Source: Escherichia phage DCP2. Taken from it: a stretch of DNA of 64,000 nucleotides. The translations under genes and the position numbers were made by a program. Positions within the stretch are counted from its first letter, which is position 1. Every line of letters starts with the position of its first letter. Positions 5,518 through 46,995 of this stretch are shown piece by piece. Under the pieces are notes generated by a model. That model was given only the letters and a program-made list of their open reading frames with translations. It ran no database searches and was not told the DNA's origin. Location of the stretch: the sequence record OR780565.1; one strand, given 5' to 3'.

Positions 5518-6383
5518 TATTGAGCCACCCCGATTTTCTGCGTAGCGATAACTTTAACTGCTGCTCTCATACCGACAGTTGAAGAACTTATAGTCGCTGT
5601 TACATAATTTGTTTTAATACTAAATGCAATATTAGCGATTTCGTCTTCTTCAGTTTCATTCCCAACTCGCATGACAGCATATTCAGAAGAAATGACCTCT
5701 GAATTAACATTATCCACAAGAATATTTATTTCTGCTGTTTTAATTTTTCTTCCATCTATCGATTGGCACGTAACTAACAATTTAGCCATGTTATATTCAG
5801 TACGGTGAAATAGTGGAATGTCAACTGATCCAGATGTAGAAATATTCCATGTACCTTCAGCTGGTGATTCCTTTTGTCCAAACATACTTTCAATAGAATA
5901 ATTCCAAACAGATGTAGAATTATCAGATGAAATACATCGTAAAGTAACTTTACTATATGGGCTAGTTACTACCAAATTACCCGAAACGCCTTTGATTGAA
6001 TCAATAGCCTGAATTGTTAAAGGATTAGTAACTGATATTGATCCATTTGAGTTAATAAATTCAACACAGTCGCCAAGTTCGCCTTTTTCAATGATAACTT
6101 TAACACCTACAGTAGAGGTATCAATATCATGTCTAGTGCCAACTTTTACTGGAGTTGCGTACTCTGCTATAGAGTGCTTTTGATAATATCCAGTAGCATG
6201 GATAATTTGGCCATTTGCTCCAGTGCCATTTGCTACTGCCATTTTGCGCTGATCGCCAAACGCATTATAAATTGCGTTAAAATCACTATTAATTTTATTA
6301 CCACCGTCGAATAAGATATCACCAGTAGAAGCGTTACCAATTTCGCCGGTATCAATCAATTTCTTTGGTTCTTGAATGAACAT
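5517..6383 (-). CDS. 9: Baseplate wedge protein gp9 (long tail fibre socket)
   Basis: 288-aa ORF, same length as T4 gp9; synteny. Confidence 0.8.
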   Translation of the reverse strand: MFIQEPKKLIDTGEIGNASTGDILFDGGNKINSDFNAIYNAFGDQRKMAVANGTGANGQIIHATGYYQKHSIAEYATPVKVGTRHDIDTSTVGVKVIIEKGELGDCVEFINSNGSISVTNPLTIQAIDSIKGVSGNLVVTSPYSKVTLRCISSDNSTSVWNYSIESMFGQKESPAEGTWNISTSGSVDIPLFHRTEYNMAKLLVTCQSIDGRKIKTAEINILVDNVNSEVISSEYAVMRVGNETEEDEIANIAFSIKTNYVTATISSSTVGMRAAVKVIATQKIGVAQ

Positions 6384-6420: not shown

Positions 6421-6441
6421 AAAGGGAGCCCATGGGCTCCC
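6421..6441 (-). terminator. Rho-independent terminator after gene 8
   Basis: Palindrome gggagcccatgggctccc followed on the minus strand by a T-run. Confidence 0.6.
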
Positions 6442-6446
6442 TTAAT

Positions 6447-7451
6447 TTAAAATGTAAACAGAATATTGATTTCTTCTGTCTGATCCATTGCCATGATAAT
6501 AGGTGGCCTATTTTCCATATAAATCATTTCGCCCGAATGCCTCATTAAATCTTCTGGATCATAATAATCCTTTTCAGCTTTAACGTTTGGGTCATTTGGA
6601 TGAACTTTAGCTTCAAGAGGATTGGTGATTATTGATATTTGTCTAAATCCTTTATTTCCCGGTAATGCAGCATCAGGAAAATAAACTGAATCTAAATATG
6701 CTTTAAAACGGATAGTATTTGCCTTAACACGGTAAATTAATCCAAAATCATCTTGTTGCCAAGTGAGATTATCTTCATACCCCCATCTAGTTGGGTCTTC
6801 TTTTAATTCCTCAGGCCAAGGAACTACGATATATTCATTTGTGCATCTATTTATAGATACATCAGGCGGAATCTCAAAAAGATATTCCCAAACATATCCG
6901 TCTCCAGGTTCGATTGTTCCTTCCGCGTCTCCTCGACCTTCAGGAGGAGTCATTGACCTAACAGAAGGAGTCCATTTTCCACCTAACTTAATACATTCAT
7001 CCTTGTCAGTCAAAGATGTTATTGAGCATGTTCCTGTGTCAGGAACATCTAAACAACGATATACTAGCCATCCTGCGCCTGATTCAGTAGCATTGTAAGG
7101 AGCTGAGTTACATACTACAATATCGTTAATTCTAAATGTGTATGGATCCGGATATCTAGTATCTCCCCAATCTCTACGAGGAATAACCGCATCAAGCATA
7201 GATGGAAGAACCTTTACGGTTCCCATCATATGAGTCCACATGTCAGTTACACCCAATACAGAATCAGTTGGATAAGGTGGAGCAAAGCCCACCTCATTTT
7301 CATTTGATGACCACGGTTCTGATCTTCCAAATGTGATAAAGATAGTGTTTTTATCCGGACCACTCCCAATTGAATTATAAAAATTCAACATTTTTTCTGT
7401 TCTAAATTTTGAAGTAACTATCGCACGATAGATAACACTTGAATCATTCAT
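6447..7451 (-). CDS. 8: Baseplate wedge protein gp8
   Basis: 334-aa ORF, same length as T4 gp8; synteny. Confidence 0.8.
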   Translation of the reverse strand: MNDSSVIYRAIVTSKFRTEKMLNFYNSIGSGPDKNTIFITFGRSEPWSSNENEVGFAPPYPTDSVLGVTDMWTHMMGTVKVLPSMLDAVIPRRDWGDTRYPDPYTFRINDIVVCNSAPYNATESGAGWLVYRCLDVPDTGTCSITSLTDKDECIKLGGKWTPSVRSMTPPEGRGDAEGTIEPGDGYVWEYLFEIPPDVSINRCTNEYIVVPWPEELKEDPTRWGYEDNLTWQQDDFGLIYRVKANTIRFKAYLDSVYFPDAALPGNKGFRQISIITNPLEAKVHPNDPNVKAEKDYYDPEDLMRHSGEMIYMENRPPIIMAMDQTEEINILFTF

Positions 7452-10400
7452 CTATTTTAACCTGTGTTGGATTTTCAGGGTCTCTTGGATTTCCTATATT
7501 ATCTTTTAGACGTTTATTAACTAAATCCCTAAACTGTGCAAATGTTGTTCCAGATGCGTCAAATAGAGGACTCATTAACTTGCGTCGTTCAGAAGGCAAT
7601 TGACCTTGAAATATTGAATTACTATTTTCAGCATTATAGTCATCAGGAAGAGGATATTTTACACCAGCCATTGGGCCAGGTTCATAAATTGCTTCTCCTG
7701 TCACTGAATCATGTTCAATTTCGCCAGTTGGAGTTAATTTAGCTACTCTATCAGCATATTCAGTAGGCAATCCAGAATCCCATTTGTAGTTTTTGTATTT
7801 ATTAATTATAGTCTCTGTGTGTTTAAGAGTTAAACCAACATTAATAAACATCGTTAAAAGGGTAATTGCTATAAATCCAAATCCTACTGGATGAACAAAA
7901 CGAATAACGTCAGATTTCCAGCGAGAAGAAGGTAAATTGGATTTAATTTTCATTACATAATATGATCGGCTTCTATTAATATAGTCTATATTATTTTGAA
8001 GCAAATCCTTTCCTTTAACACCACGAATAATTTCGCCTTCAAAACTCGGAAGTCTTTCTGCTTTAACTTCTTGACCAGCAATTAATCTTCCCAAAAGATT
8101 ATGAATAGTTACGGTCCATTGCAATTTACCATTAGAATAACTTCTTTCTATATAAGTAACATTACATCTTCCTGTGGCTGTATAAATCGTTTGTCCTACC
8201 AAATCTTCAGTTAAAGAATCAGATTGAACGATTATATCGTATTCAGTACCAGCACCAGATTCAATTTCAATTTCAACTTCTTCATTATAAAGAACTTTAA
8301 AAAGAAATTTGTATGATGCTTCAATTCCTTTAGTAGAATAAAAATCATAGCTACGTGATTCAAAAAATCTTGCAACAGCATCACGTTTGTCAGCATTTAA
8401 ATAAATGTTTCTTTTATATATCTCTGACCACAAATATTCCCATGCATGCTCTTCTCGTGGATATTTGTTACGAATTAAATTTCGTAAATTGTTATACTGA
8501 GTTCCATATCCATCAGAAAGATATTGAATATATGCTTCGCAAAATGCCTCAAAATTCGAATCTTGTAGTAAATAAGAATCAGGCATCATTGTGCCAATCA
8601 ATGGTCTTAAATCAGGGTCAGCTAATCCGTGCTCTTCTTCTGGTGACCAAGGAGTCTCATGCTCTTGGTTTTGTAAAAATGCTTTTAAAAATATTCCAGT
8701 TGGCTTCCAAATTATTTCAACCGTGTCTCTCACTCGATAGTTAAAATCATAATAAGAAATTATTTCACCAGAGGATTTATAAAAAAGCATCCCAGACGCA
8801 TATTTTTTAAATCCCGTGAATTTAACGTTTGGCATTACTATAGTGCAATCGCCGTCATCCCAGTATTCATGAACTAATCTATCTGGCGATGTTTCTGGAA
8901 AATTTTCAATAACTTTAGTATATTTTAAATCTGCATAAACTACCACAGCCCTATTAGAGTTGTTTATCCAGCACCGTGTATTAGACTTTTTAGACCAGTT
9001 AAAGAATGGTTCTGCATAGTATTTCATTGGCTGAGGCGTAAAAGTTTCCCAATCAGACTTTTCATCTGCTATAAATGCCATCATATGATAATGCTTATCA
9101 GCTAACCATTCACGAGGAAATTCATATTTAACGGCACCGATTAACTGATATTTTGCTACAGTTTCAGGGTCATTAACAACGTTATCATTTAAAAATTTAA
9201 AATTACTCGAAGATAGAGAAACTAATTTACCATCAGTTGACATATTCGCATACCCAGGTTGAATACGTCTTCTTTCTTCTTCAGTGTTGCCAAAAACTCT
9301 TTTCCACGTTTTTGTGTCATGATTTAAAACATATATTCCTTTATCAGTAGAATCAATTATTTTTGACGTTCTAGGATTAGCATTTAATGTTTCAACTTCA
9401 CCGATAATAAGAGCAAAAACTTTATCACCAATAGAATCCATTTTATAGCATACTGCTTTAGGATTTCCAGTTATAGTCATTGTATCAGGTTCAAATAGCC
9501 TTTCCGAATATGTTGGAGATAATGGATCAGAATCTATAGGTGCATTACTCGTTTTTATGTATCTAACTTTGTCTCTGGCGACAACGTAAATGTAATCATC
9601 GGTGCAAGTAATAGCTTCAGCTATACGATACACGTTTGCAGGTAATGTAGCATAAGTACCAAAGATTTCAACATCAAATCCCAAATGAAGTTGATCACCA
9701 AGTTTAGCGAATGTTATGTCCTGCGAACTAAATCTGACATCATCAGCTGACCATCTAACATCAGTAGATTTGCGGCCATAGAAAATCTTGTCGTATCCTA
9801 GAACGTATGTTGTGCTCGCAGATTGGTAATATACAGTCTTAGATAAAGGATATCCTACACGGTCATTGAAGAGCTTTACAGCTTTCCAGGTTTGACCTTT
9901 ATCATTGGATACTTTAACTACAGGTTGATAACGCTCAAAAAGATATAGAATCCCTTCTGATTCCATCAAATAAACTCGATTAATATCCTTACATACTTGC
10001 TGAATAGAACCTTGTATTTCATGATACTCATTTTCACCAATAATAAAATTACTTATTGATGAAACATCAGCATATGATGGGCTGAATTGGAATGATTCAT
10101 TCATCAATGCAGCCATTATAGTATCATTATTAAAATTAACATAGTCAGAATTATTAAGAGTAAATTTTTCCTGAATGAATTTATTAGCTAATTGCATTTC
10201 AATCATGTTTTGAAATGTATAAGCGTTTGTAGCAAAAGTTTCAAACTCTTCGGTATAAATCCAATCAGACTGCTCAAAATCCTGTGCAGCTGTAGCTACT
10301 CTAATAATGTACGATGTCAATGGATTAGCATTATCAAAAAAGAAGCTGTTATTTGCAGTATATCCTAAGTTAATCCATCGGTATTGATTGCTCGGGAGAT

Positions 10401-39789: not shown

Positions 39790-40758
39790 ATGAAAACTGT
39801 AACTATCAATAAGGGTATCTACTTCGGTAAAGAAATCTCTGGAACTTTTGAGCTCTTAGGTGAATGGTTCCCAGATAATGCTCCGGTAGATGCACAAGGA
39901 GATGGTAAAGTTTTTGTTGAAATTGACGGTAAGCGTCGCGGTGTTTGGGTTTACAAATCAGACATTTCATATGATGGTGTAAAAGTTGAAGAAGTTAAAG
40001 AATCATATGAAGATATGAAAACCCGCATTAATAAAAGATTTAATGTTATGGGAATGATGACGAATGGTATTATTAATGGAAATATTCGTTCATTAATTAT
40101 CTCTGGCGCAGCAGGTATTGGTAAAACGTATTCTTTAGATAAAGCTTTAAATAAAGCAAATGATATTGGATACATTGAATATAAAAGCATTAATGGTAAA
40201 ATCTCTGGTATTGGTCTTTATGAGCAGCTTTGGAATAATCGTGAAGAGAATTCTGTCCTTTTGATTGATGATGTGGATGTTTTCTCTGATATGGACATTC
40301 TTAATCTTCTGAAAGCTGCTCTGGACACTGGAGAGACCCGTAAAGTCTGCTGGAGCACCGCATCTTCTTACTTAGAAGAAAAAGGCATTGAGCGTGAGTT
40401 TGAATTTAAAGGAACGATTGTTTTTATCACAAACGTTGACATTGACCGCGAATTAGACCGTGGTACTAAACTTGCTCCACATTTACAAGCATTAGTGTCC
40501 CGCTCGGTTTATTTGGATTTGGGTGTTCACACTAATGAAGAAATTATGGTCAGGGTTGAAGATGTTATTCTTTCAACTGACATGATGCAAAAGCGCGGTC
40601 TTTCTGATGAAGAAACTTATAAAGCATTATCATGGATGAAAGTTAATGTTAATCGTTTACGCAATGTTTCACTGCGTACTGCTCTTTATCTTGCTGACTT
40701 TATTATGACCGACAAAAACGGTTGGGAAGAAATTGCTGAGGTTACTCTTCTGAAATAA
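39790..40758 (+). CDS. P-loop ATPase
   Basis: Walker A GAAGIGKT, Walker B VLLIDDVD; about 322 aa. Confidence 0.55.
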   Translation: MKTVTINKGIYFGKEISGTFELLGEWFPDNAPVDAQGDGKVFVEIDGKRRGVWVYKSDISYDGVKVEEVKESYEDMKTRINKRFNVMGMMTNGIINGNIRSLIISGAAGIGKTYSLDKALNKANDIGYIEYKSINGKISGIGLYEQLWNNREENSVLLIDDVDVFSDMDILNLLKAALDTGETRKVCWSTASSYLEEKGIEREFEFKGTIVFITNVDIDRELDRGTKLAPHLQALVSRSVYLDLGVHTNEEIMVRVEDVILSTDMMQKRGLSDEETYKALSWMKVNVNRLRNVSLRTALYLADFIMTDKNGWEEIAEVTLLK

Positions 40759-41222: not shown

Positions 41223-41750
41223 ATGAACGCTAAAGATATTTTCAACTTAGTAAATTATAACGATGGTAAATTTAAATCTGAAGCACAAAGCAAGTTCTTT
41301 AATGACATCTCAATCGGAGGTGAAATCACGGTTGATGGAGGACAAATTTACAAATCCCGTTGGAATTGGATCGTTATTATCGATGAGATTGGTATTGTAG
41401 AAATTTACAAGAATACGAATAAAAATCGTACATTACACTGGTCTCGTGATACTAATGAACAGTACAAAAAGGATAAAGCATCTAAATTATCTCGTGTAAC
41501 TCAAGAAGATATTGAGTTCATCAAGAAAGATATTTTGATGTATGATAACTTAATTGCTGAAGAGCAAGCTGTTATTGATAAATTTGATGAGATTAAAGCT
41601 TCTCGTGAAATTCCTGATTTTATGAAAGAATCAGTAAATGAACGATACACTCTCATTTCAGAGCGTATTGAAACTTACAAAAAGCAAAGAGCTGAACGCC
41701 AAAATACTCTTCGGAAGTTTGAAGAACGGTTAAAGACGGTACTCGCATAA
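41223..41750 (+). CDS. Hypothetical protein
   Basis: 175-aa ORF with charged C-terminal helical region. Confidence 0.45.
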   Translation: MNAKDIFNLVNYNDGKFKSEAQSKFFNDISIGGEITVDGGQIYKSRWNWIVIIDEIGIVEIYKNTNKNRTLHWSRDTNEQYKKDKASKLSRVTQEDIEFIKKDILMYDNLIAEEQAVIDKFDEIKASREIPDFMKESVNERYTLISERIETYKKQRAERQNTLRKFEERLKTVLA

Positions 41751-41805: not shown

Positions 41806-42210
41806 ATGAAACAGTTGATAATTAAAAGATTGAATTTATTGATATGTTGTTTATGTATAATAATTGCATATGGTTATTATGCTATTAATGATTATATGCA
41901 TTATAAAGATTATGATGTTACTGTAGTTAATACCTTTACAGGAACTCAAGGAAAGGGGTCTAGTTTATCGTTTATTGCTGTATATGAACTCAAAGACGGT
42001 TATAGATTTAGTGAATATATTTCCCCAGAGATGTATTCTTCAATAGAAAAAGGTGATAATATTACTGTAAGTTTACGTCCTTTCGACGTAAAACAGACAT
42101 TGTTTGATAATATTGTTTGGTTCTTTGGAATGGTATTAGTTCAATCTGTGTGTGGTGCTTATATAGTCTGTTCCATCTTATTCTGTATATTTAGTAAAAT
42201 TGAAAATTGA
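41806..42210 (+). CDS. Small membrane protein
   Basis: 134 aa with N- and C-terminal hydrophobic helices. Confidence 0.45.
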   Translation: MKQLIIKRLNLLICCLCIIIAYGYYAINDYMHYKDYDVTVVNTFTGTQGKGSSLSFIAVYELKDGYRFSEYISPEMYSSIEKGDNITVSLRPFDVKQTLFDNIVWFFGMVLVQSVCGAYIVCSILFCIFSKIEN

Positions 42211-43109
42211 GTGAGGAAAATATGTCAGTAGTAATTAATAATGTCAATGCAGTAATTAAATCTTTAGTTAATAAAAAATTAAATGAATGGACTGTACTTC
42301 GTCGTGGAGAGCCAGATAAATTTTTTCATAGATTTAACCCAACTTTGGATTTGAATGTTATTGACAGAGATGTTCATGCTGAAATTTTAGATAAATTTAA
42401 AGTTGATATTGGGTTTGGATTAGATAAACATTTGCAACGAACAAACGGATCTGGAATGGGTTTATCTAATCGCATCATGAAAGCCCTTAATAAAATTGGA
42501 GCGTTGTCTCGTATTAATGCGAGTGAAATCCTTCGCAATTATAATAAAGGATATGACCTTTATGGTCGACTAATGCCGAAATTATCATTTGACCAAATGA
42601 TTGCGGATTTGTGGGAAAATCAACGACGATTATTAGCATTAGGCGCTCGATTAGCTAAAGGTCTAGATAAACAAATGATTTTTAAGACCAATAATACAGA
42701 AGACCTTAAATGCTTTAAATTTAGTACTCGTGGAGATGATTATTACATCAGAGCTCGCTCTACAGATTATGTTAATATGGGGCATCATCTCTGTTTAGCT
42801 TTTGAAGTTTTAAAAGAAGCCGGAACATTAGAATATGTGTCTGGTGCTAAATGTCCGATTGGTTCAAATTGCATTTTAATTTATCGCCCAGATGAATCCA
42901 GTTCAACTAAATTACCTACAAAACCTGTACCAGTTCGCAGTAATGAAAAACATTCTGAACAAATTGCTTATTTTAATAAGCAGATTGAAGAGCTAAATAT
43001 TTCTATTCAGCAATATGATGATGAAATTTTCAGACTATCTGGATTGAGTAGTAAAGCTAAATCTGAGCGTGAAAAATTAATTAAAATCGTTGATTTACTT
43101 AAATCTTAA
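42207..43109 (+). CDS. Hypothetical protein with C-terminal coiled coil (family member 1)
   Basis: 300-aa ORF; C-terminal about 45 aa heptad-like. Confidence 0.45.
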   Translation: MSEENMSVVINNVNAVIKSLVNKKLNEWTVLRRGEPDKFFHRFNPTLDLNVIDRDVHAEILDKFKVDIGFGLDKHLQRTNGSGMGLSNRIMKALNKIGALSRINASEILRNYNKGYDLYGRLMPKLSFDQMIADLWENQRRLLALGARLAKGLDKQMIFKTNNTEDLKCFKFSTRGDDYYIRARSTDYVNMGHHLCLAFEVLKEAGTLEYVSGAKCPIGSNCILIYRPDESSSTKLPTKPVPVRSNEKHSEQIAYFNKQIEELNISIQQYDDEIFRLSGLSSKAKSEREKLIKIVDLLKS

Positions 43110-43117
43110 GGAACACC

Positions 43118-44146
43118 ATGAAAACTCGTTCTCAAATTGAAGATATGGTTCGTAATGCCAGCTATACTCGTGATGTTATGACATTTTTGTGTGAAAATAA
43201 TTTAGACCCTGATAAAGTTAATCGTGTTATTCATCACTTTAAGTATACGAATAGCAGTGAATGGGTGCGTAATTTTAGTAAAGCAGGGTATATTACGCAA
43301 ATGACGGCTCGTGAGCAGCTCACCGATTTCTGTAAAACTATTGATTATAAAAATCCTTTGATTGTTCAAGGCGTTGGTCAAAGTAAGGTCGATTTATCAT
43401 CTGGATTTTTCAATCCAAATCATTATCGTATTGAATGGAGATTTATTGCTCTGTTCCGTAGACAATTAAAGCAAATTTTATCAACTGCGAGTCGATTAAA
43501 AGGTTCTGATATTAACTTAAAGAATCTGAAATTTGATGGTTATACTCTTCAGATGGAAGTAAGACCGTTAAAAGAAAATAATAGAACTGCACGAATTAGC
43601 TTTAAGCCTAATACTAAAAATTCTCTTTCAATTTGTGAATGTCTTAAATCACAGCTGACAGAAGCATTTAAGTATATGGATGTTGTTGCTGCTGTTCAAT
43701 CTAAGATTTTACCTCGTTTTGAGCGAAATTGGGAACATACAACAACATATGAACTTGATATGATCGTTTCATTTAAATATGAATTTTTGAGAAAGGATGA
43801 AATTGTTCAAGAGAAAAAGCAGGAAGTGCAAGATACCTTAAATTTAAATTTATCCAATTACTTATCAAACGATCCTAAATGTTGGATGTACAGTTCAAGT
43901 AACATAGATGCATGTAAACTTAATAAAGTGAGTTTTCTTCCTACTGAAAATTCAAATTTTAAACCTGTAGAAAAATGGCACGCTGATGCGATTGAAAAGT
44001 CTCTTAAGGCAGTAGATGATGAACTCGTTAAAGCGACCAATGAAATGCTAGAAGCTGAAAAGGCGTTAGAACAAGCTCAGTCAAGGGTTCAAAATCTGAC
44101 AAAGCAACGTTCTAAACTGAACAATGCACTAAATGCACTGAACTAG
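43118..44146 (+). CDS. Hypothetical protein with C-terminal coiled coil (family member 2)
   Basis: 342 aa, begins MKTR; C-terminal coiled coil ending NALNALN. Confidence 0.45.
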   Translation: MKTRSQIEDMVRNASYTRDVMTFLCENNLDPDKVNRVIHHFKYTNSSEWVRNFSKAGYITQMTAREQLTDFCKTIDYKNPLIVQGVGQSKVDLSSGFFNPNHYRIEWRFIALFRRQLKQILSTASRLKGSDINLKNLKFDGYTLQMEVRPLKENNRTARISFKPNTKNSLSICECLKSQLTEAFKYMDVVAAVQSKILPRFERNWEHTTTYELDMIVSFKYEFLRKDEIVQEKKQEVQDTLNLNLSNYLSNDPKCWMYSSSNIDACKLNKVSFLPTENSNFKPVEKWHADAIEKSLKAVDDELVKATNEMLEAEKALEQAQSRVQNLTKQRSKLNNALNALN

Positions 44147-44175
44147 TTTACTTTACCACAAGGATGTGGTATAAT
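44146..44175 (+). promoter_or_regulatory. T4-type early promoter
   Basis: gtttac -35 and tgtggtataat extended -10. Confidence 0.65.
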
Positions 44176-44203
44176 GTTCTTACTTTCTACTGAGGAGATT
44201 AAT

Positions 44204-45205
44204 ATGACTCGTAACGAATATATCAAATCATTCAATAGTGTTATTGATGATAAAGTTAAACCTATGTCTAGTCAGAATAGCGTTATTTCCATTATCAATC
44301 AATGGCTCAATAATATTGATGTAAGCATTGTTTCTTCCAGCAAATTTATTCATGAAGTTCATAAAATTTCTAGTCGCGAAGATAAAGATGATATTAAGGA
44401 AACCTTTAAAGGTTCTCGTCTTCTTTCATATTTAGTTAATCAGGATATTCTTGGTAAATTTGGGAAAGAAATTAAACGAACTAAAGATGTAGTAGGATAT
44501 AATTGGTTCGGTGATGTTAATTCTTATCATCTTAATAATAAAGAAGACCCTGAGAATATTTTTACTCGTCGTTGGATTAGTAATTTCAGACTTTTCAAAG
44601 GACAGATTCTAAAATCAGCTTCTAAATTATGTTATGGCGATTATCGTCAAATTCATCCTTTGGCTTCTGATATGATTATCATAAAAGAATATGAACTTGA
44701 TAAAAATAAAGTATCTATTTTTGTGAATTATGGATTTTTTACACCAGAAACTAACCAAAAGAATATTAATAAATTTTTCTCAATTGCTAGCACTATAACT
44801 CGTCAATTAGAGACCGCATTACTTTGTATGGAAACAGTAGAAAATATTCATACATATCCTTTTAAGAATATATGCGGTTGGGAAGGATATAAACTCGTAA
44901 TTAGCCTTCGTGAAGTGAAATGTGCTTATTCACCTACTGATAAAGAAATTTACCAACAAAAATGTGATGAAATTGTGAATACTCCTAAAGAAGAAACTAC
45001 CCTTGAGGAACTAATGGAATGTCTTGATGATTCACCTGAACCGATAGAAATTCGTCCAGAAGTTATTGCATTAGAAAAAGCTTATAAAGAAGCTCTAGAA
45101 ATTTCTAATAAAGCGCAGAAAGAATATGAACAGGCTAAAAGGATTTGGGAAGAATCTGTTAATCGCCTGGATCGTCTTGAACAAGCTTTACAGTTAATTA
45201 AGTAA
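44204..45205 (+). CDS. Hypothetical protein with C-terminal coiled coil (family member 3)
   Basis: Internal Met start with SD gaggag; C-terminal coiled coil ending LEQALQLIK. Confidence 0.45.
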   Translation: MTRNEYIKSFNSVIDDKVKPMSSQNSVISIINQWLNNIDVSIVSSSKFIHEVHKISSREDKDDIKETFKGSRLLSYLVNQDILGKFGKEIKRTKDVVGYNWFGDVNSYHLNNKEDPENIFTRRWISNFRLFKGQILKSASKLCYGDYRQIHPLASDMIIIKEYELDKNKVSIFVNYGFFTPETNQKNINKFFSIASTITRQLETALLCMETVENIHTYPFKNICGWEGYKLVISLREVKCAYSPTDKEIYQQKCDEIVNTPKEETTLEELMECLDDSPEPIEIRPEVIALEKAYKEALEISNKAQKEYEQAKRIWEESVNRLDRLEQALQLIK

Positions 45206-45257
45206 TTTAAAGCCAAGGATGGCTCGGAGTATAAATCATTAACCAAGTGAGAAGAAC

Positions 45258-46187
45258 ATGAAAACTCGTAAACATTATATTGATTATTTTGATAGTCTTA
45301 TTACTAAACACCGTAATTATCAGATTGGGCACAGAGCAGTAATCAATAATATTCTTCGTGATTTCTTTCAATATGTTGGCCAGGAAAATCATATCTGTAA
45401 AGATACTCAAAACGCTTATTCTCATTCGTTAGGCAATTTGCTTCAATGGTTTAAACGTTCTCGTCTGTTATCTTCTACTGTAGCTAGTGATAACATTAAA
45501 AACTTTATGAAGCCGAGCTTCATTAAATCTGCGACATCTATAACCGATTTGGTTGAATTTACTATTGTTAACGATGTTAAAAAGACCCATTTGGCTGATT
45601 GGTTATCTACCATTCCTGAAACTAAATTTGCTGATAAATTCGCTTGTCAATTCAATGACCAAGTGAATATGCTTTTTAAGCATGCTCGTAAACTATTTAC
45701 CGCGGGCGATGACCGTACAAATACAGTTCATGTTAAGGACTGGGTTATTGCTGATGAAGTAACACACAAGCCAGGTGGTTCATCAGTATTAATTAATATC
45801 CAGGTTCCTTATTATTACTCACGTAATCTCGGCACCATGACAGCTAGAGAAATTAATAAGCATAACAAAACTATTCGTTCGTTGTCTTATAAACTCTGCA
45901 CGATGGTGGAGATGATGGACGTAGTGGAAATGTATGACGAAACCGAAGATAATGGTTCAATGTTATACAGTTCACGCATTCTAATTAAACTGAAGAACCC
46001 TAATACATATAAGCCAGTTGTAAAAGAACCTAAAGTAGAAAAGATTGATAACTTGCGCGAAGAACGTGAATATCTCAATGCTCGTTTGATTGAAGTTGAA
46101 GTCCAGATTGCCGAACATACCAAATTGTTAAAAGCTCTTAATGCAAAAGCAAATGGTTTACGTAATGCTATTGAGGTATTGAAATGA
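45258..46187 (+). CDS. Hypothetical protein with C-terminal coiled coil (family member 4)
   Basis: 309 aa, begins MKTR; C-terminal coiled coil ending LRNAIEVLK. Confidence 0.45.
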   Translation: MKTRKHYIDYFDSLITKHRNYQIGHRAVINNILRDFFQYVGQENHICKDTQNAYSHSLGNLLQWFKRSRLLSSTVASDNIKNFMKPSFIKSATSITDLVEFTIVNDVKKTHLADWLSTIPETKFADKFACQFNDQVNMLFKHARKLFTAGDDRTNTVHVKDWVIADEVTHKPGGSSVLINIQVPYYYSRNLGTMTAREINKHNKTIRSLSYKLCTMVEMMDVVEMYDETEDNGSMLYSSRILIKLKNPNTYKPVVKEPKVEKIDNLREEREYLNARLIEVEVQIAEHTKLLKALNAKANGLRNAIEVLK

Positions 46188-46501
46188 AAAAGCGTCTATT
46201 AGAAGATATTGCAGCTTCAAGTAATTCCAGTCTAATTAAAATCATTATGGCTGGTGAAGAAGACGATCTGGAAATGCGTGGAAAGATTCATGGCTGTGAC
46301 GATCTAGACTTTAAACCTCCTGCTTGGGATGCCATTATGGTTATGGTTGAACGCCGCGAAAGGGCTTCTAAGAATGTTCCGAACTGCCCAAAATGTGGTA
46401 CTGAACAGGTCCAATTGATTAACTGGCGTAAACCAGAGCTTGAATATAAATGTCGTCATTGCAAACACCGATTTAACCGAGAAGAAAATGACCAAGCGTA
46501 A
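46184..46501 (+). CDS. Zinc-ribbon protein
   Basis: 105 aa; C-terminal CPKCG...CRHCKH motif. Confidence 0.4.
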
Positions 46502-46731: not shown

Positions 46732-46995
46732 ATGTTTAAAGTATATGGTTATGATAGCAACATCCACAAATGTGTGTATTGCGATAATGCAAAACGTCTT
46801 TTGACTGTGAAGAAACAGCCGTTTGAATTTATCAACATTATGCCGGAAAAAGGTGTTTTTGATGATGAGAAAATCGCTGAGCTTCTGACTAAACTGGGTC
46901 GTGATACTCAAATCGGATTGACGATGCCTCAGGTATTTGCTCCTGACGGAAGTCATATTGGTGGATTTGACCAATTGCGGGAATACTTTAAATGA
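46732..46995 (+). CDS. nrdC: Thioredoxin/glutaredoxin NrdC
   Basis: 87 aa; CVYC redox motif; matches my recollection of T4 NrdC. Confidence 0.9.
   Translation: MFKVYGYDSNIHKCVYCDNAKRLLTVKKQPFEFINIMPEKGVFDDEKIAELLTKLGRDTQIGLTMPQVFAPDGSHIGGFDQLREYFK

Follow-up and report, generated by a model that had tools for sequence, protein, structure and literature searches.

Introduction

Among the closest described systems is NrdC.5 of phage T4. A T4 deletion clone fails to plate on ECOR17 and on MG1655 with the dsr1 of ECOR17, and plasmid-borne nrdC.5, classed as an early gene in that study, restores plating (Srikant et al. 2022, PMC9391042). Dsr1, a SIR2 NADase, senses the major capsid protein of the phage through its TPR domain (PMC12803255). 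The defence-associated sirtuin inhibitor DSAD1 of Bacillus phage SPbeta is described as binding the sensor region of DSR2, which a structural protein of the phage can then no longer activate (PMC10973363, PMC11087589). In addition, nrdC.1 counters Septu (bioRxiv 10.1101/2025.11.20.689424) and gp49.2 counters OLD (PMC13096335). In this study we analysed a 64,000-nucleotide stretch of Escherichia phage DCP2 (OR780565.1), referred to below as the window and numbered as a whole throughout, in which four consecutive genes are the orthologues of T4 nrdC.6, nrdC.5, nrdC.4 and nrdC.3.

Our modest new result is that these genes encode four whole-length paralogues of one Straboviridae-wide family, expanded in coliphages. 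We favour a reading, to which we assign a probability of about 0.6, in which the tandem paralogues are expressed early and are inhibitors, probably oligomeric, of host immune proteins. The anti-defence role has been demonstrated genetically for nrdC.5, and we propose it, from kinship, for nrdC.3, nrdC.4 and nrdC.6.

Four orthologues of T4 nrdC genes

The 3.98-kb interval that holds the four genes is 97% identical in DNA sequence to Escherichia phage 232Ecol030PP (Tequatrovirus); with hundreds of other genomes of Tequatrovirus, identity is 90-96%, and the source of the window is a T4-like phage of this genus. Gene order from nrdC.10 to gene 49 matches that of T4 (NC_000866) gene for gene, and eight other Tequatrovirus loci agree in the position of nrdC.5 between nrdC.6 and nrdC.4: nrdC.10, nrdC.9, nrdC.8 and nrdC.7 lie upstream of the array, and nrdC.2, nrdC.1, nrdC, pin and gene 49 lie downstream. 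The + strand of the window corresponds to the direction of early transcription in T4.

Protein family matches place each gene. NrdC.5 matches Pfam DUF7235 (PF23882) from end to end (residues 1-342 against positions 1-307 of the 307 in the model; E 2e-120, 402 bits against a cut-off of 30) and also matches phrog_2351 (E 2e-165). NrdC.6 matches phrog_2257 over its whole length (E 4e-152), and PF26899 is found on all 105 of its homologues. NrdC.4 and NrdC.3 both match phrog_1435 (E 1e-166 and 9e-115, respectively); their assignment to PF26897 comes from the precomputed annotation of all nrdC.4 homologues and of the nrdC.3-derived half of P0056, a natural fusion protein described below. Pfam thus splits the four proteins into three families (PF26899, PF23882/DUF7235 and PF26897).

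Homology of the N-terminal heads

Pairwise BLAST comparisons find no significant similarity in five of the six possible pairs, and all four proteins close with a heptad-repeat helix whose last turn is similar. There are also natural fusions that retain a tail, for example P0056 and P0231. All of this could be expected if four unrelated N-terminal domains had been joined by domain shuffling to the same C-terminal oligomerisation or targeting module. The first-pass annotation, made by a model from the letters and translations, had described the locus in similar terms, as proteins with dissimilar N-terminal regions of about 250 residues and a shared C-terminal tail. Our comparisons reverse both parts of that description, because homology is detectable exactly in the N-terminal regions, by BLAST and by profile alignment of the N-domains, and the tails on their own have no significant similarity between families (E of at least 0.001).

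The one pair that BLAST detects, nrdC.4 and nrdC.3, is matched in the N-domain (residues 2-213, E 3e-6), and a single PHROG covers both proteins from end to end. For profile comparisons with hhalign, the family alignments were enriched with divergent orthologues from Dhakavirus-, Gaprivervirus- and Mosigvirus-like loci. The resulting probabilities were 98% for nrdC.4 against nrdC.3 (E 4e-14) and 92% for nrdC.5 against nrdC.4 (E 6e-7). Removing the tails from the latter pair left the probability at 91.5%, with a score of 52 compared to 13.6 +/- 2.4 for a column-shuffled null. For nrdC.6 and nrdC.4, N-domains only, the score was 32 (null 13.9 +/- 1.9), and nrdC.6 compared to a merged nrdC.3/4/5 profile gave a probability of 92%, E 6e-7 and a score of 54 (null 14 +/- 3, maximum 26). 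Across the superfamily, scores of head comparisons were far above both column-shuffled and reversed nulls, and the similarity was collinear.

The alignments also identify what the heads have in common. A MAFFT alignment of nrdC.5, nrdC.4 and nrdC.3 begins with a collinear M(K)TR start, in which T3 and R4 are invariant in these three families. It had been pointed out earlier that two of the proteins begin with MKTR; these are nrdC.5 and nrdC.3, and nrdC.4 begins with MTR. Three further shared motifs follow: a helix-turn-helix (FK.SRLLS...L..F.K), the segment RW..F....ILK.A.KL..GD, and a helix ending in MDVV or METVE. The alignment also lines up L..A[LI]..L[KN] at the end of the tails. Segments MKALNKIGALSRINASEILRNYNKG and NQRRLLALGARLAKGLDKQM of nrdC.6 align to the first two of the shared motifs. 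At below 20-25% identity, nrdC.3, nrdC.4 and nrdC.6 are remote paralogues of nrdC.5.

Since homology lies in the heads and none is detectable in the tails, the genes form a tandem array of whole-length paralogues, and the suggestion that they are a paralogue family is borne out by the profile comparison of all four. We therefore propose that NrdC.3, NrdC.4, NrdC.5 and NrdC.6 constitute one superfamily of ancient whole-length paralogues. With significant N-domain matches for nrdC.4-nrdC.3, nrdC.5-nrdC.4 and nrdC.6-nrdC.4 and for nrdC.6 against the merged profile, no significant similarity between isolated tails, and modelled heads that share an element order and are connected by Foldseek (see below), assembly from unrelated modules is largely refuted and we consider it very improbable.

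Coiled-coil tails and predicted structure

Each protein ends in a segment that is poor in proline and glycine, is 47-61 residues long and has a periodicity of 3.5 residues, in agreement with the heptad-like C-terminal segments noted in the first-pass annotation. In family-averaged hydrophobicity profiles, 3.5 residues was the strongest period in all four tails (permutation p = 0.002-0.012), and one unbroken a/d register suits each of them. The heptad score calculated from single sequences was best at the C-terminus; nrdC.5 exceeded all 300 shuffles and nrdC.3 reached p = 0.003, with weaker scores for nrdC.6 and nrdC.4. The final turn is alike in the four tails ([KR]L..A[LI]..L[KN]). All of the weak matches to Pfam, NCBIfam and PADLOC models are coiled-coil models that fall on the tails.

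It should also be noted that nrdC.6 of the T4 reference (NC_000866, 9990-10300, minus strand, corresponding to about 42990-43109 of the window) is frameshifted within the heptad tail. The annotated frame ends in ...KQIEELIFLFNNMMMKFSDYLD, and the other frame holds the conserved ISIQQYDDEIFRLSGLSSKAKSEREKLIKIVDLLKS; the T4 protein is therefore annotated with 275 residues, compared to 295 in the window phage. The frameshift is either pseudogenisation in a laboratory strain or a sequencing error.

AlphaFold2 models cover nrdC.5 (predicted local distance difference test, pLDDT, 69; predicted template modelling score, pTM, 0.56) and nrdC.6 (pLDDT 79, pTM 0.65). Both models have the same order of elements: N-terminal helices, the two motif helices, a beta-beta-alpha-beta-beta unit, a linker, and one or more C-terminal helices. 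The linker is of low confidence (residues 226-283 in nrdC.5 and 227-241 in nrdC.6). The tail of nrdC.5 is modelled as one 59-residue helix (283-341), and that of nrdC.6 as two helices (242-271 and 277-294) with a glycine between them. Each protein is predicted to consist of an alpha+beta head of about 220-280 residues, a disordered and variable linker, and a heptad-repeat helix of 47-61 residues.

Profile searches of PDB sequences found no solved relative of the head. When the models were compared to BFVD with Foldseek, nrdC.5 retrieved uncharacterised Straboviridae proteins of about 220-370 residues, and its top matches include NrdC.6 of phage JS10 (E 6e-5, probability 1.0). The nrdC.6 model retrieved similar proteins from T4-like phages of Enterobacter, Pectobacterium, Acinetobacter and Yersinia, and one protein of Citrobacter phage Merlin was matched by both models.

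Foldseek additionally aligned about 130 residues of the nrdC.5 model, weakly (E 0.008-0.07), with proteins of the tail completion, tail terminator and head-tail connector types, a result that might point to virion-associated or assembly proteins, for instance relatives of a head-tail connector or tail completion protein. However, these matches are not significant and were not reproduced with the better nrdC.6 model. The genes also lie in an early region behind a conserved early promoter, are dispensable and have been deleted in nature, and nrdC.5 was called an early gene by Srikant et al., so that a role in the virion appears highly unlikely.

Divergence, mosaic alleles and copy number

The first-pass annotation had proposed a diversifying family. 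Protein identities within and between genera support this, since the array diverges faster than its neighbours. Within Tequatrovirus, amino acid identity is 87-100% for nrdC.5, 89-97% for nrdC.4 and 60-97% for nrdC.3, compared to 98-100% for nrdC.8, nrdC.9, nrdC.10, nrdC.1, nrdC and gene 49; nrdC.6 (94-100%) is barely under the flanking genes. Between genera, the values are 32-52% for nrdC.6, 21-28% for nrdC.5 and 40-51% for nrdC.4, compared to 66-92% for nrdC.8, nrdC.10, nrdC and gene 49.

Divergence is greatest for nrdC.3, which occurs as three allele classes (at least 90%, about 75% and about 60% amino acid identity). Compared to T4, nucleotide identity falls to 46-73% within about 45400-46100, with 83-87% at the gene ends and 97-100% in the neighbouring genes. 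This collapse between conserved flanks indicates mosaic replacement. The array is also rearranged in other phages. P0056 is a natural fusion in which residues ~146-270 of nrdC.5 are joined to residues ~135-309 of nrdC.3, and P0231 carries an unrelated N-terminus of 120 residues on a NrdC.5 tail. In phage ACG-C40, nrdC.6 is kept and the three genes from nrdC.5 to nrdC.3 are lost; what remains of them is 72 codons at the start of nrdC.5 and 72 at the end of nrdC.3 (5805-6216 of that locus, L003). The four genes are dispensable in nature.

Copy number varies across the Straboviridae: Tequatrovirus has four genes, and loci of the Dhakavirus-, Gaprivervirus- and Mosigvirus-like kinds have three; nrdC.3 or nrdC.4 is absent from some genera. 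A single member lies just upstream of nrdC in Citrobacter phage CF1, Klebsiella phage Roth34, Aeromonas phage PS49 and Acinetobacter phage AB-Navy71, carriers that are listed by group as a Moonvirus, a Klebsiella T4-like phage, a Karamvirus and an Acinetobacter T4-like phage. The hhalign probabilities of these four single-copy members were 97%, 90%, 82-85% and 53%, the lowest being that of Aeromonas PS49. Slopekvirus KP15 and Krischvirus GEC-3S showed no member in the vicinity of nrdC, and four family hidden Markov models (HMMs) found no fifth member in the window.

Several other candidates were set aside. Open reading frames of 258-262 and 325 residues that precede nrdC in distant phages do not belong to the family, and the 325-residue ones are NrdC.10-like. 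NrdC.8 of the window (175 residues, 41223-41750) has a long charged C-terminal helix, and a 175-residue protein of phage KPV15 was among the Foldseek matches, yet hhalign finds no relation to the family and the candidate was rejected. When the NrdC.5 profile was run exhaustively with HMMER against 1.84 billion representative proteins, it returned 13 proteins, mostly T4-like orthologues or fragments, and no bacterial or distant relatives; the NrdC.5 family proper is thus tiny. Of the two weakest matches, P0237 appears to be spurious and due to repetitive sequence, and P0236 has only the tail in common and is probably a chimeric assembly.

In Klebsiella phage KP15 (Slopekvirus), the region upstream of nrdC (6422-7855 of locus L022) encodes a nicotinamide phosphoribosyltransferase (NadV). 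NadV is a salvage enzyme for nicotinamide adenine dinucleotide (NAD+), of a type used by phages against NAD+-depleting defences. Here it may represent another way for a phage to meet the same challenge from the same place in the genome.

These patterns bear on a further possibility, that the four proteins are subunits of one hetero-oligomer, joined through their coiled-coil tails and serving a single host-takeover function of which anti-Dsr1 activity is one facet. Adjacent, co-oriented genes with one common architecture would be consistent with such a complex, as would tails that are more conserved than heads, surface positions included, as for specific partner recognition. However, nrdC.5 alone on a plasmid rescues the T4 deletion mutant, copy number ranges from one to four across genera, nrdC.3 or nrdC.4 may be missing, natural phages keep nrdC.6 without nrdC.5 through nrdC.3, and the tail of nrdC.6 is frameshifted in the T4 reference. 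Such a complex thus fits poorly, and we regard it as unlikely.

Proposed function of the array

According to the first-pass annotation, the four proteins were expected to be host-range or anti-defence effectors with a function that could not be inferred from sequence. The literature supersedes the second statement, given the anti-Dsr1 activity of nrdC.5. The first holds for nrdC.5, whose T4 allele restores plating on Dsr1 cells, and for the other three genes it is a prediction from paralogy.

We used the conserved positions and domain searches to consider how such proteins might act. The only invariant polar positions in nrdC.3, nrdC.4 and nrdC.5 are T3 and R4; the other conserved positions are hydrophobic, with the exception of E293 and E318 in the tail and P283 at the start of the tail. 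Apart from DUF7235, there was no match above threshold in Pfam, NCBIfam, PADLOC or PDB, and hence no enzyme signature in these collections. Hydrophobic conserved positions and the lack of a detectable catalytic domain point to a binder and not an enzyme, and this binder-like conservation favours stoichiometric inhibition of immune proteins.

Many GenBank records nevertheless label these proteins as thioredoxins, and nrdC adjoins the array, which would suggest a role in redox or nucleotide metabolism. At the sequence level this is refuted: Pfam and NCBIfam searches match no thioredoxin or glutaredoxin model to any of the four, none contains CxxC, there are no conserved residues of catalytic type, and the label derives from the locus name nrdC.x. 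The true NrdC is a separate open reading frame of 87 residues (46732-46995). We give a redox function next to no chance of being correct.

Hundreds of phage records label homologues of nrdC.3-nrdC.6 as 'thioredoxin', and the T6 record uses structural-protein names. Both kinds of label are annotation-propagation errors from the locus name, and we flag this mislabelling as widespread in GenBank.

In the inhibitor reading that we favour, the four products would be dispensable accessory proteins transcribed early from sigma-70-type promoters. Each paralogue would act as a stoichiometric inhibitor or decoy of a different host immune protein, with the fast-evolving head providing the binding surface and the coiled-coil tail forming a dimer or higher-order assembly that could give avidity against oligomeric defence proteins. 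NrdC.5 in particular may bind Dsr1 and block its activation by the phage capsid protein. Direct binding and oligomerisation through the tail are steps that we infer.

Several observations weigh against this reading or limit it. Tails outrank heads in conservation within each family, even at surface heptad positions (tail/head conservation 0.64/0.40 for nrdC.6, 0.37/0.24 for nrdC.5, 0.63/0.44 for nrdC.4 and 0.80/0.58 for nrdC.3; for nrdC.4 the 63% and 44% are identities among distant orthologues for the tail and the N-part). Conservation at surface positions suggests that the tails may bind a conserved partner, beyond self-association. The link of nrdC.6 to the family consists of a 74-column profile match together with fold evidence. 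Confidence in the two models is moderate (pLDDT 69 and 79), and global template modelling scores between family members are 0.2-0.5, low values that we attribute to flexible placement of the tail, and a common fold for the family is thus a tentative proposal. NrdC.5 of the window, at 93%, falls short of full identity to that of T4; its differences cluster in nucleotide windows at about 43700-43960, overlapping the predicted disordered linker. NrdC.5 could also work by an indirect route, such as through NAD+ metabolism or the Dsr1 trigger. Finally, a full-text literature search found no functional data for nrdC.3, nrdC.4 or nrdC.6, or for the family accessions.

A broader and more tentative proposal is that NrdC.3-6 represent a scaffold for inhibitors that is spread across the Straboviridae and can be expanded, built from a new alpha+beta head on a coiled-coil stalk, in which each tandem paralogue or mosaic allele neutralises a different host immune sensor; we see this as possible, with the odds against it. 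The likely targets would be further systems with an NADase or a TPR sensor that are related to Dsr1 and Avs7. If the proposal is true, expansion from one to four copies in coliphages and the swapping of nrdC.3 alleles record the defence repertoire of E. coli.

NrdC.5 is one of few T4 genes with a demonstrated counter-defence role and has so far been treated as an orphan. As its paralogues, nrdC.3, nrdC.4 and nrdC.6 are therefore three direct, testable anti-defence candidates. The division of each protein into a variable head and a conserved coiled-coil tail, with a disordered linker between them, can guide mutagenesis and structural work with Dsr1, and genera with one copy, set beside those with three or four, offer a natural comparison of expansion under immune pressure.

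Gene layout, promoters and neighbouring genes

Coordinates of the genes, tails and promoter are given in Table 1. The first-pass annotation had listed four head-to-tail open reading frames on the + strand. This arrangement stands, with proteins of 295-342 residues, but the first start is corrected from the TTG at 42207 to an ATG at 42222. The ATG lies six nucleotides after a GAGGA Shine-Dalgarno sequence and is the start annotated in relatives; the TTG overlaps the stop codon of nrdC.7.

Table 1. Genes, heptad-repeat tails and early promoter of the nrdC.6-nrdC.3 array in the window.
Feature	Coordinates	Strand	Basis
nrdC.6 orthologue, 295 aa (amino acids), PF26899 / phrog_2257	42222..43109	+	T4 synteny, PHROG match, start and Shine-Dalgarno, hhalign, AlphaFold2
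nrdC.6 heptad-repeat tail, residues 240-295	42939..43106	+	periodicity p = 0.012, a/d register, modelled helices
nrdC.5 orthologue, 342 aa, DUF7235 / PF23882	43118..44146	+	Pfam full length, T4 synteny, 93% identity to T4
nrdC.5 heptad-repeat helix, residues 282-342	43961..44143	+	heptad score, periodicity p = 0.002, AlphaFold2 helix
T4-type early promoter of nrdC.4: GTTTAC, 17 nt (nucleotides), TGgTATAAT	44146..44175	+	scan: 10/12 matches, extended -10 TG
nrdC.4 orthologue, 333 aa, PF26897 / phrog_1435	44204..45205	+	PHROG match, hhalign to nrdC.3 and nrdC.5
nrdC.4 heptad-repeat tail, residues 284-333	45053..45202	+	periodicity p = 0.0025, a/d register
nrdC.3 orthologue, 309 aa, Pfam/PHROG family as nrdC.4, mosaic alleles	45258..46187	+	PHROG match, BLAST to nrdC.4
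nrdC.3 heptad-repeat tail, residues 263-309	46044..46184	+	heptad score p = 0.003, periodicity p = 0.0035

A strong early promoter had been noted before the third gene, and a match to the sigma-70/T4-early-type consensus is indeed present there. Its -35 and -10 elements, the Shine-Dalgarno sequence and the ATG of nrdC.4 are invariant in eight loci of several genera, and the spacer core AAGGATG is conserved across genera. Inside the spacer between -35 and -10, a 7-bp inverted repeat (TACCACA AGGA TGTGGTA, 44154-44171) was flagged by the scan as terminator-like.

The spacer before nrdC.3 (45205-45235) holds a degenerate copy of this promoter, with ATTTAA, about 18 nucleotides including CCAAGGATGG, and TATAAA; the corresponding parts of the nrdC.4 promoter are GTTTAC, 17 nucleotides including CAAGGATG, and TATAAT. 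The nrdC.3-like gene of Mosigvirus JN02 keeps an intact GTTTAC...TATAAT. With a degenerate promoter before nrdC.3 and an intact one in JN02, it seems that the gene was duplicated together with its promoter.

Two of the neighbouring genes have features of their own. Downstream, nrdC.2 (46184-46501) encodes a zinc-ribbon protein of 105 residues (CxxC...CxxC), and its start overlaps the stop of nrdC.3 (ATGA). It is hypervariable within Tequatrovirus, with 64-93% amino acid identity compared to 98-100% for its neighbours, and could be a further gene of the arms race or else work with nrdC.3 as its partner. Upstream, P-loop, AAA and STAND-like NTPase models match the nrdC.10 orthologue (39790-40758) weakly, in each case under the Pfam cut-offs.

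Comparison with known systems

The closest known system is T4 NrdC.5. The window gene at 43118-44146 is its orthologue by identity (93%), by the full-length Pfam match and by its position between nrdC.6 and nrdC.4. Counteraction of Dsr1 in trans belongs to the T4 allele; for the window allele, the same activity is predicted from sequence similarity. DSAD1 offers a possible functional analogy for how NrdC.5 may act, and has no sequence or fold relationship to NrdC.3-6.

Within the same region, the single-gene anti-defence proteins NrdC.1 (anti-Septu), Gp49.2 (anti-OLD) and Pin, which is a Lon inhibitor, resemble the array in lying in the early nrdC/49 accessory region and in being dispensable, trans-acting inhibitors, a description that for the array proteins other than NrdC.5 is a proposal. 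They differ in being unrelated in sequence and much smaller, and they have neither a multi-copy paralogue array nor a coiled-coil tail. Lastly, uncharacterised Straboviridae proteins of about 300-370 residues resemble the modelled NrdC.5 or NrdC.6 in predicted fold (Foldseek E 1e-7 to 6e-4). They come from Citrobacter phages Merlin and CF1, Klebsiella phages Mineola and Roth34, Erwinia phage Cronus, Acinetobacter phages Acj9, Acj61 and AB-Navy71, and Pectobacterium phage PM2, and differ from the array of three to four genes in being single-copy.

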